A DNA stretch of 64,000 nt from Octopus vulgaris. Taxonomy: Eukaryota. The translations under genes and the position numbers were made by a program. The stretch covers positions 114,700,001 to 114,764,000 of the forward strand of contig OX597821.1 of NCBI GenBank assembly GCA_951406725.2. The letters run 5' to 3'. Numbering within the stretch: the stretch's first letter is position 1; the number at the start of each line of letters is the position of its first letter. The notes under the pieces were generated by a model. It was not told the origin of the DNA. It did no database searches and worked only from the letters and a program-made list of their open reading frames with translations. Shown in pieces: positions 2,532 to 6,359 of the stretch.

Positions 2532-2671
<140 letters not shown>

Positions 2672-2699
2672 CGCAGGAGTGGCTGTGTGGTAAGTAGCT

Positions 2700-4877
2700 A
2701 GGTTGCTTCTGCGCATGTGCGAGTCAGTGTTGTGTTTGGTACTGAAGCGGTGAAGACGTGCTTTTGAAGCCGTCTTGAATTGAAAATTTTTGAAGCCTCA
2801 TTGTAAGGTAAGATTCTGTTTTCTGGGTCCAGTGGGAATTTTTGTTGAAAATTGTTTTTTACAGGCAGGAAGTCCTACTGGATTCAGAATTCTGATTCTG
2901 CCGACATGGGGCAAATATATTTTTCTCACCTAATTATGAGAATTGTATTGTGCTGTGAAGAACTTTAAGAATTGTGAAAACTGTTATATAGGGGAGTGTT
3001 TTGCCTCCGAAGTTTGAACAATTTTTACCAATTTTACACCAATTTTTGTGGAAGTTGTGTTCCAGTTGCGGCGTTCCGGGTTCAATTTAGGCCGGGAGTA
3101 CCGAATGGCCAGAAGGTTTTTGCTGTGTTATTGACTATCTTTTTAACTTTATTTGACTTTCTCCTTTTTTGTTCATTGTGACTTTCTTCTGATTTCTTTT
3201 TCTTCTCGCTTTTTAAGTTTTATTTTGAATATATTTAAAAAAAGAAAAAAAAACATGGCAATGAAAAATGACAAAGTTTTGGAATGGGAGATCATACCGC
3301 CTAAAAAGTGGTTAAAAGACCGTGAAGATAGGACGGTGGTGTTGAGAACCTACTCCAAGGCACTCGACACCATCGCCCTGTTCGAAAAGACGGCAATTGA
3401 AAAGGAGTTGGCAGAGTATTTGCCAACAATTAAATTCATTTCCAGGGGTGTCAAATATGCAACGGTGTGGTTGCTATTTGACACCTCTGAAGAGGCTTGC
3501 AAATTTGCTAGTAAACCTCTGGAGGGTAAGGAAATTTTATTCCTGCCCACGTACCAAAAAAAGAGACTGACGAAAGCTTGGATTTGCGGGCTGCCACCCG
3601 GGATAGAACCCGAGTGGATAGAGGAGACTATCCGCCGGGGTCTGGGTAGCAGCGAAACTAAGCTCCTTAATGTAAAAGTTCTTCCTGCGGCTGCTTGGGT
3701 TGGGTCAAAAGCAATTTTGACCCTTTGGACCCAATCAGCCAATCTGGTTCTTCCAGATTTTTGAAAATGGCCGGGTGCAGGTACCCGGTGATGCTTGAGG
3801 GTCGCCCCCCTAAGTGTCATCGGTGCTTGGAGTCCGGCCATATAAAGAAGAACTGTCCCCGCGAACAAAATAGGATCCCGGAACAGTTAAGTGAAACCCC
3901 TGTAGAAGAGGGAATGATAACGGCCGAGGAAGCAGAGGACTCCTCAAACAGAGGCCGAAAGAGGAAGGTGAGCAACAATGGGTGCTCACCAAAGGATACT
4001 AGGGATGAGGAGGGAAAGGCGAATCTTCCGGCCACGGAGGAGACGCACCCTCCCTCAGTTGAAAAGAAAAAAAAGAAAAAGAGGAAGAGAAACGGGACAT
4101 TACCGGCTGTCGGTGACATAGCACCGGAATGTCCCGGAACTACGTCGGTTGGGGTTGTGCCACCGACAGGAGAAGAAATACCCGTTGGCGGGAACTGTGC
4201 CGCCAACGAAAGAATTGAATATCCCGCACCCGAGCAAAAACGAGGTATTGATCCTCTTCTATAGAGGCGGAGAGATTGAAAAGGTGATGGAAAAGCACCA
4301 CAAGGGAGCACCTTTAGCCTTCACACAGGACCCCGAATGGCCTCCGCAGGTAGCTGTGGAGGCCGTGGCGTTCGACGTGACGCTTGGGCTGAAGGAGCTC
4401 AATGAGGATTATAGCTTGGTCCCGGGCGACGCTAACTCGGAACTCGATTACGTTCTGAGGGAGGCGTGGTGGATGGTGGAGGGCGCGGGCACAAGTTATT
4501 TCGAGGACGAGTCAAATTGTGATACGACTTGAGGGGCCCCGACCTAGAGCTGGCGCATTCCTAAGGGAAGTGTAAGCCAGGTCTGGGAGGAGGGGCTTTG
4601 TGTATTGTATTTATATATGTAATTATTGAACTATGTTGTTATTAGTAATGGACTGCTAAGTCCAAAAATTGAAAAAATTGTAAGAGGTTTAATACCTCGT
4701 TTCGTGTTTGTTTTTAAAAGAACAATGTTTTAGAGAAGCAGAAGTCGGCGGGCGCTTTTTGTCTTCTCCCATCCCCATCATATTTCTTTCATTATCATTC
4801 ACTTCATTAATGTCCTCGTCCAGCCCGCAAAGCTAACTTACTCTATGTACTGCCATCATGGCAAATCTTATGAAATA
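2700..4877 (+). mobile_element. ORF1-only (HAL1-like) non-LTR retroelement, L1/Tx1-type
   Basis: Flanked by 8-bp TSD AAGTAGCT (2692-2699, 4878-4885); 555-nt 5' UTR, one gag-like ORF, 345-nt 3' UTR ending in TGCCA-TCA-TGGCA hairpin and AATA(AA); no RT or endonuclease. Confidence 0.8.
3255..4532 (+). pseudogene. ORF1/gag-like nucleic-acid-binding protein (~425 aa after correcting two compensating frameshifts)
   Basis: ATG at 3255; RRM-like N-terminus (VWLLFDTSEEA, AWICGLPPGI); -1 shift in the T run at 3758-3762 into EGRPPK-CHRCLESGHIKKNC (CX2CX4HX4C knuckle); basic KKKKKKRKR tract; +1 shift near 4183 back to the first frame; stop at 4530-4532. Confidence 0.8.
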
Positions 4878-5373
4878 AAGTAGCTTGCTAACCAACCACA
4901 TGGTTCCGGGTTCAGTCCCACTGCGTGGCATCTTGGGCAAGTCTCTTCTGCTATAGCCCCGGGCCGACCAATGCCTTGTGAGTGGATTTGGTAGACGGAA
5001 ACTGAAAGAAGCCTGTCGTATATATGTATATATGTGTGTGTGTGTTTGTGTGTCTGTGTTTGTCCCGCTAGCATTGCTTGACAACCGATGCTGGTGTGTT
5101 TACGTCCCCGTCACTTAGCGGTTCGGCAAAAGAGACCGATAGAATAAGTACTGGGCTTACAAAGAATAAGTCCCGGGGTCGATTTGCTCGACTAAAGGCG
5201 GTGCTCCAGCATGGCCGCAGTCAAATGACTGAAAAAAGAGTAAAAGAGTAAAGAGTATATATGCACGTATGCGTCATGGCCAGTTCAAAATGCCCGCCGT
5301 TTAATTCCACGTGAGATATGGTCAAAATATCGCCGCAGTAAATACAGTGACGAAATAAATTTAAATTTATATA

Positions 5374-5606
5374 AATAAGGATAAGATCGTTAATTTAAAA
5401 ATAAAATAACGATTTTATCAAGTAGTCAGCATGGAAAAAATAACCTTCAAAGGTAATAATTATTAAAATTATAAATTAGGGTATCTACGAGATACCACCA
5501 TGTTGAAAATAGCAGCCATGATCTGACTCTAAAACCACCTTAATTGTTCATATATCAACACGGAGAGAAAACAAGGAGACAAGATGAAACTAGTAAAAAA
5601 TTACTG
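5374..5606 (-). mobile_element. Second copy of the family C pseudo-LTR fragment
   Basis: Near-identical to 2147-2379, truncated just before the hammerhead motif. Confidence 0.7.
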
Positions 5607-5609
5607 AAG

Positions 5610-6359
5610 CAAGTAAAAGATAAAAGATAAAAGATATACAGAATTTAGTTTTTCCTCTTCTCGTTCTCCATTTTGCCCTTCATGAAAATTAGCATCAGAC
5701 ACGGATGATCTCTTGGCCCTCAAAATGTCCTTGCCCATAGAGAACAAACACTCCACTGCAGCACTGGAGAGGTTGGCAGTGTTGAACTTGATGAAGAAAT
5801 GCAACAACTCTTGCTCGTCTGTCAGTAGATCTTTGGAGATGGTCTTCAACCAGGTCTTGACTAAATTCTGGACCTTGTCCTTGAGTGACCTGTGTCTCCC
5901 GATGCTTTCTTTTGGCTGGGTGACACTACGGAAGAAGTCCTCCTCCTTTTCATTGTTACTGCTCACTTCGTCAGACTGCTGCCTCATAGCCTCCTCGACC
6001 TTACCCTCCATGCGTTTCCCCACCTTGGCAACCTTGGTGTTGTTATACTTATCCAACCAGATGAGGCGAAACCTGGGGTGGAAGGCAGCAGCCAGCTGGC
6101 ATTCTTCTTCCTCCAGCGGGACCCTAAACCTTTTGTCGATGTCTGCTAAAAGTGCGTCGATCAAGCGGCTGTAGTAGACGAGGCCCTTGGACTTCAAGTC
6201 CTTGAGCCCAGCAACTTCAGTTAACGAAAGTTAGATGTAATGGAAGTTAATTAGTCCGATAGTGATTTTCAAAGTTAACTTAAAAGTTAAATCGTTAACG
6301 AAAATGTTAACTTTGTTAATTAACGATGAACGGATTAACGGTTTGGTGCCCAGGCTTGC
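5610..6359 (-). mobile_element. hAT transposon deletion derivative (C-terminal dimerisation domain plus one end)
   Basis: ORF 5601-6197 has LAAAFHPRF and NTANLSSAAVECLFSMGKDILRAKRSSVSDANF (hATC-like); terminus CAAGCCTGGGCA with GTTAAC subterminal repeats at 6220-6345. Confidence 0.85.

Follow-up and report, generated by a model that had tools for sequence, protein, structure and literature searches.

The 64,000-nucleotide stretch of Octopus vulgaris DNA analysed here (contig OX597821.1, positions 114,700,001 to 114,764,000; hereafter the window) carries an insert of 2178 bp at positions 2700-4877, which lies between two copies of the 8-mer AAGTAGCT located at 2692-2699 and again at 4878-4885. 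The insert interrupts a SINE, a target that was overlooked in the original prediction. The 5' head of this SINE (2670-2699, plus strand), whose 3' end is the left target-site duplication, aligns with eight uninterrupted SINE heads in the window, and the right duplication together with the interrupted SINE body (4878-5240, plus strand) likewise aligns with SINEs of the window. An uninterrupted SINE at 30769-31157 is 96% identical to the rejoined flanks over 389 columns and contains AAGTAGCT once. Since an intact SINE results when the flanks are joined and the uninterrupted copy has the 8-mer only once, the 8-bp repeat is a true target-site duplication, and the insertion is real and took place as one unit. 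The predicted 2178-bp insert with a clean duplication is thus borne out, and its movement as a single unit is supported both by the duplication and by coverage over its full length in public sequencing runs. In the first 105 nucleotides 3' of the insertion there is one difference between the two SINE copies, so that the interrupted copy must be young and the insertion more recent still.

The SINE head at 2670-2699 contains a motif that is presumably A-box-like. ARAGORN finds no tRNA gene in the SINE, so that this motif is the sole basis of the label 'tRNA-derived', and none of 18 Rfam matches at E≤5 comes close to the gathering score. Two SINE heads lie in tandem at 30608-31157, where an older copy is directly followed by the young full-length one. 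A direct repeat of 253 nucleotides (2127-2379 and 5355-5606, 96% identical and 3.2 kb apart), which has no further copy in the window, brackets the SINE and its insertion. Elsewhere in the window a 209-codon open frame on the minus strand (5601-6230) has no Pfam support and ends in what we take to resemble the dimerisation region of hAT transposases, and degraded fragments of a Gypsy-type integrase are located at 24493-25152 (minus strand) and 28938-29150.

The element itself begins with a leader of 555 nucleotides (2700-3254, plus strand; 36% GC), which confirms the long 5' UTR that had been predicted, contains four upstream ATGs and a pyrimidine tract before the ATG, and is covered in all four of the runs that were aligned. 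Near its 5' end a GCGCATGTGC motif (2709-2720) presumably resembles an NRF1 site and is a candidate internal Pol II promoter. Splice-like signals are present in the leader, with donor-like GTRAG at 2803/2808 and an acceptor-like site at 2864, and donor-like and acceptor-like signals lie in the segments 2803-2864 and 3130-3225. The gene model P0001 joins the leader end of another copy by splicing to a Gypsy integrase.

The distance from the stop codon to the end of the element is 345 nucleotides and this copy has no ORF2; neither reverse transcriptase nor endonuclease is found in the element by a Pfam scan of all three ORF1 pieces and inspection of the reading frames. Readthrough of the stop codon into a hidden ORF2 was considered and rejected, as a TAG follows four codons past the ORF1 stop. 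Directly 3' of the stop codon lies a stable hairpin (4533-4599, plus strand) with a folding energy of -39.2 kcal/mol (z -4.89, 0/200 shuffles); the last 188 nucleotides of the element give a z of -0.70 (47/200 shuffles), and the structured 3' UTR of the original prediction thus holds for the hairpin and not for the terminal part. The remaining 3' UTR and tail (4600-4877, plus strand), seen in the sequence and in run contigs, ends in AATA. This AATA is indeed terminal as predicted, but the longer AATAAA overlaps the duplication and there is no poly(A) tail at the 3' end of the element. In some copies a short stretch of the 3' UTR, 4639-4702, is duplicated in tandem (joint from 4702 to 4639/4640). 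No terminal inverted repeat is seen when the two element ends are compared (3/10 and 3/20 terminal positions match), the element contains no LTR-like or long direct repeats, and there is no second copy of it within the window.

Reading frame and protein product of ORF1

ORF1 spans 425 codons in total, but the single open frame of about that length that had been predicted does not exist in this copy, where two compensating frameshifts break it. The first piece (3255-3764, plus strand) runs from the ATG at 3255 to a TGA at 3762-3764, encodes 169 amino acids comprising RRM1 and most of RRM2, and ends at a frameshift in a T run at 3757. The second piece (3758-4180, plus strand), which lies in a second frame that is open over 3671-4264, comprises the end of RRM2, one CCHC knuckle (3815-3856), a low-complexity linker and a basic tract (4064-4090), and is closed by a second frameshift at 4181. 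The third piece (4182-4532, plus strand) returns to the first frame, open over 4122-4532, and encodes a C-terminal region of 116 amino acids up to the TGA at 4530-4532.

Both breaks sit in short homopolymers. Contigs of the four aligned runs carry one extra T at 3757 (17981/19029, 11718/25109, 1779/2152 and 80/80 by depth) and one base fewer at 4181 (3667/6192, 2974/8927, 294/842 and 206/206), although in run X2 the extra T makes up no more than roughly half of the depth, and the missing base accounts for a third in X2 and X5. A protein from Octopus sinensis, P0002 (75% identical), reads through the first break in a single frame by tblastn. As the run contigs lack the breaks mostly or in part and P0002 is in frame, the family ORF is open over about 425 codons, and the present copy is either decayed and dead or contains two single-base assembly errors. 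Of 261 differences among copies 40 are listed, 24 of them coding, and 11 of these 24 are synonymous over the whole ORF (p 0.009-0.15). In the folded core 8/12 listed differences are synonymous against an expected fraction of 0.22-0.34 (p 0.001-0.02), and in the linker 2/11, the split between core and linker having been chosen after the differences were seen. These values hint weakly, and post hoc, at purifying selection on ORF1.

The RRM-like region, the CCHC knuckle and the basic tract of the original prediction are all present. The knuckle matches Pfam zf-CCHC with an E value of 0.0054, which is below the curated cut-off, and is the only part to find a match in a sequence search of the PDB. 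The distinct C-terminal domain that had also been proposed is unproven: the C-terminal region has no Pfam match and its single-sequence model reaches a pLDDT of 40. A match of this piece to amine oxidases (130/256 features in common) was taken as chance.

The N-terminal piece falls among eukaryote clusters of a protein atlas at 0.90-0.93, and an exhaustive protein search with the 169-aa piece yields 32 matches at E≤0.001. Sources are at hand for 31 of the 32 and comprise 13 Octopus proteins (sinensis, vulgaris and bimaculoides), 17 Logan proteins and one spurious match, P0022 (3725 aa), which was discarded. The 30 relatives are mostly 23-39% identical to ORF1 and fall into clusters of 1-4 members where these were looked up; this low identity and the small clusters form a pattern such as repeat-derived gene calls would give. 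Their RefSeq models are uncharacterised genes, and P0002 has three accessions. Distant relatives on Logan contigs of 1.7-1.9 kb (P0021, P0033-P0035 and P0020) may represent further ORF1-only families or merely broken contigs.

A structural model of P0002 built from a 32-row alignment has a pLDDT of 77 overall, and mostly 80-96 over residues 11-180, and consists of two RRM-like domains and the knuckle with no N-terminal coiled coil. Foldseek returns 82 matches at E≤0.001 with tandem-RRM proteins on top, and each RRM superimposes onto VIA with a Z of 8.4 and an rmsd of 2.5-2.8 over 75-81 aligned residues, which reflects a common fold only. Type I LINE ORF1 proteins are defined in the available text of PMC4120745 by one or more RRMs directly before a CCHC knuckle, and for this reason the modelled octopus protein, with two RRMs and one CCHC, is classed as type I, a fold which alone is no proof of LINE origin. 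The same text places type I in the I, Jockey, R1, Tad1, plant L1 and L2 clades and describes mammalian L1 ORF1 as type II, with a coiled coil, one RRM and a CTD (PMC4120745). An ORF1 with RRM and CCHC is also consistent with Tx1 in animals, as far as the available text of PMC5203782 goes. None of the 32 aligned members matches Transposase_22, the L1-type ORF1, among the matches listed (25/29 families).

Copies of the element in public sequencing runs

The element or part of it is present in 20 of 24 listed sequencing runs, drawn from 10 studies and four organism labels. Contigs were aligned in detail for four of the 24 (X1, X2, X5 and X11 included), which carry three organism labels; none of the runs that contain the element is listed as RNA, and the designation of X11 as RNA is a guess only. 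All 30 bins of the element are covered in each of the four, and the three larger runs contain 15-24 contigs at position 2740 and 29-49 at position 4855. The element is a multicopy family, as the original prediction held, with many variant contigs over its whole length and coverage from end to end in 4/4 runs. Single-contig depth in the leader at 2963 is 1190, 1200 and 100, and just past the ORF at 4613 it is 1300; 793 and 970; and 59 and 109. Contigs of the leader and of the post-ORF region are thus of like depth, flank-bearing contigs in X5 have a depth of 6-9, and depth rises in the tail past about 4645. This suggests tens of near full-length copies as an order of magnitude, summed contig depth being no copy number.

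Several contigs speak to the structure downstream of ORF1. In records 6, 16, 23 and 24 the post-stop region is joined to the tail. Record 15 of X11 leaves the window sequence at 4510 and continues for 132 further letters, and since a contig of equal depth (75.1) covers 4672, the tail probably follows ORF1 in it after at most 132 nucleotides; it would then be a second variant that lacks the hairpin and is too short to accommodate an ORF2. Among the 32 listed of about 381,850 pieces no contig extends across the stop at 4530-4532 by 31 letters in both directions, and among those listed none runs across the whole element, nor is there a joint or loose end at 4510-4645. The query included the SINE flanks, and SINE sequence dominated the listings of joints and loose ends. 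The ORF2-less state is likely to be common to the family; it is not proven, because no listed contig bridges the stop and the SINE flanks swamped the joints.

Mode of movement and competing origins

The insertion probably belongs to a young octopus family of non-LTR retrotransposons that is multicopy, encodes only ORF1 and, being non-autonomous, is moved in trans. The element RNA would be transcribed from its own leader and then coated and chaperoned by the ORF1 protein, which may co-assemble with the ORF1 protein of a partner. An autonomous LINE would supply endonuclease and reverse transcriptase in trans and recognise the retained 3' tail. In the established process of target-primed reverse transcription, the reverse transcriptase would prime at the nick; a bottom-strand nick after ...CTACTT could pair with two terminal A residues of the RNA, and a further nick displaced by 8 nucleotides would create the 8-bp duplication. 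Given this reading, a partner from an L1-Tx1 family is the likeliest, with the balance tilting somewhat towards it. According to the available text of PMC13282606, O. vulgaris has 80 L1-Tx1 families of which 13 are recently active, the latter with 421 insertions that amount to 2,288,644 bp (2.29 Mb) and average about 5.4 kb. CR1, which is likewise active in O. vulgaris, is an alternative partner clade. The partner itself did not emerge from a weak search in which 0/5265 candidates had a fused ORF1-ORF2 model, nor from a near-length profile search that gave only two matches, both known, of 8000 scored, nor from metagenome scans in which none of 333 and 155 pattern matches was confirmed.

A different account is that an autonomous LINE lost ORF2 through a one-off internal deletion during or after insertion, and that the other copies in the runs are ordinary two-ORF elements with the same leader, ORF1 and 3' UTR. 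Both sides of the ORF1 stop would be covered in either case and no listed record bridges it, depth steps up in the tail past about 4645, and active L1-Tx1 insertions have the average length of about 5.4 kb given above (PMC13282606, available text). A deletion would nonetheless have had to remove ORF2 cleanly and leave no remnant, no joint or loose end at 4510-4645 is among those listed, and record 15 of X11, by its equal depth, appears to be a second abundant variant with a close link between ORF1 and tail. This origin is considered unlikely.

Far less probable still is a passively mobilised retrocopy of a transcribed host gene, such as a domesticated ORF1 gene or the ORF1 locus LOC115225585, even though relatives exist as uncharacterised RefSeq genes (P0002 with its three accessions) and the leader contains splice-like signals. 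The many variant contigs over the whole length make it unlikely that the element is the processed pseudogene of a host gene present in one copy, which the original prediction had named as one possible refutation; the poly(A) tail is also missing, and the 30 mostly 23-39% identical relatives in clusters of 1-4 resemble repeat-derived gene calls. Insertions of hAT and P elements typically produce duplications of 8 bp, and together with the lack of poly(A), the fixed-looking 3' end and the gag-like knuckle this might point to a DNA-transposon-like or LTR-derived insert that was not moved by target-primed reverse transcription. With no terminal inverted repeats (3/20), no LTRs, and two RRMs upstream of the knuckle, an arrangement that defines a LINE type I ORF1 (PMC4120745, available text), this is highly improbable.

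Known systems and a possible SINE target

ORF1-only LINEs are a known kind of element, of which the octopus family would be a further case. In the original prediction it was called HAL1-like, which stands as an analogy, both being ORF1-only and the octopus element probably moved in trans, but not as a statement of membership. Mammalian HAL1 is likewise a non-autonomous LINE derivative that consists of a 5' UTR, ORF1 and a 3' end without ORF2 (PMC5753468, available text); it stems from the L1 clade, where mammalian ORF1 is type II, whereas the octopus protein is type I rather than L1-type and its element has no poly(A). HeT-A and other telomeric Jockey elements of Drosophila are ORF1-only, type I and dependent on the ORF2 of a partner (PMC5786205, PMC13534243). 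Jockey ORF1 has three knuckles (PMC4120745) and the octopus protein one, and HeT-A is telomeric whereas the octopus element is interspersed. Repeated loss of ORF2 in Drosophila is reported for telomere-specialised Jockey elements and not for other Jockey elements, which ties the loss to a specialised insertion niche (PMC13534243, available text). Ag-Sponge of Anopheles, likened by description, is also a dispersed non-autonomous LINE with ORF1, derived from CR1, so that the ORF1-bearing non-autonomous LINEs in the available text of PMC5786205 are HeT-A (Jockey), HAL1 (L1) and Ag-Sponge (CR1), three clades from mammals and insects. The ORF1 proteins of such elements are thought to multimerise with those of the partner (PMC5786205, PMC5753468). 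No ORF1-only LINE of cephalopods was found in the literature, including the available text of PMC13282606, PMC10294476, PMC9115989 and PMC8967140; an unlabelled repeat-library entry may exist.

Target preference accompanied by a duplication is described for Xenopus Tx1 (into Tx1D), crocodilian Tx1-Mar (into Mariner-N4) and Keno (into U2), which are Tx1 families with a reverse transcriptase; the available text of PMC4494074 mentions neither a SINE among the targets nor a Tx1 element limited to ORF1. A contig of X1, record 7, hints that the octopus element may target its SINE. This diverged contig of 160 nucleotides (4823-4982, 24 differences, no gap, depth 65; mismatch positions not visible) joins the last 55 nucleotides of the element to 105 nucleotides of SINE in exact register, at the same SINE nucleotide. 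It was rejected as an empty SINE, as 8/8 empty SINEs give at least 44 mismatches over the same 160 nucleotides, and as the present locus, for which its divergence is too high. Three commoner SINE copies have 18-20 differences over the same 105 nucleotides, which with a few in the tail makes about 24, as in record 7. Chance alone, at a rate of about 1 in 14,000 per copy, would yield 0.0014-0.035 copies with such an in-register junction among 20-500 insertions. The same 3' junction would arise, however, if element and SINE body had been joined in a read-through chimera. At the other end, record 9 of X11 (2679-2917, 26 differences) includes just 21 letters of the SINE head and provides no bridge.

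It is tentatively proposed, as a possibility with the odds against it, that the family parasitises the dominant SINE of octopus in a site-specific manner, with an ORF1-only Tx1-type element and its partner using one insertion nucleotide. The insertion point would then lie directly 3' of the A-box-like motif of the SINE and split the internal Pol III promoter, and ORF1 might be under selection since it is useful for aiming or packaging the RNP, as has been proposed for HeT-A.

As a young mollusc family, the element would indicate that the ORF1-only strategy recurs and would make it possible to test why a LINE parasite keeps ORF1. Surveys based on reverse transcriptase overlook ORF1-only elements, which gene prediction in turn annotates as 'uncharacterised proteins'; the 13 named Octopus relatives are examples. 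If the targeting is true, the family would extend the ORF1-only LINEs beyond the three clades in the available text of PMC5786205 and would have a SINE as its target. An element that targets the SINE promoter would be a hyperparasite that could limit SINEs, which taken together account for 11.6% of the genome in O. vulgaris (PMC13282606, available text).
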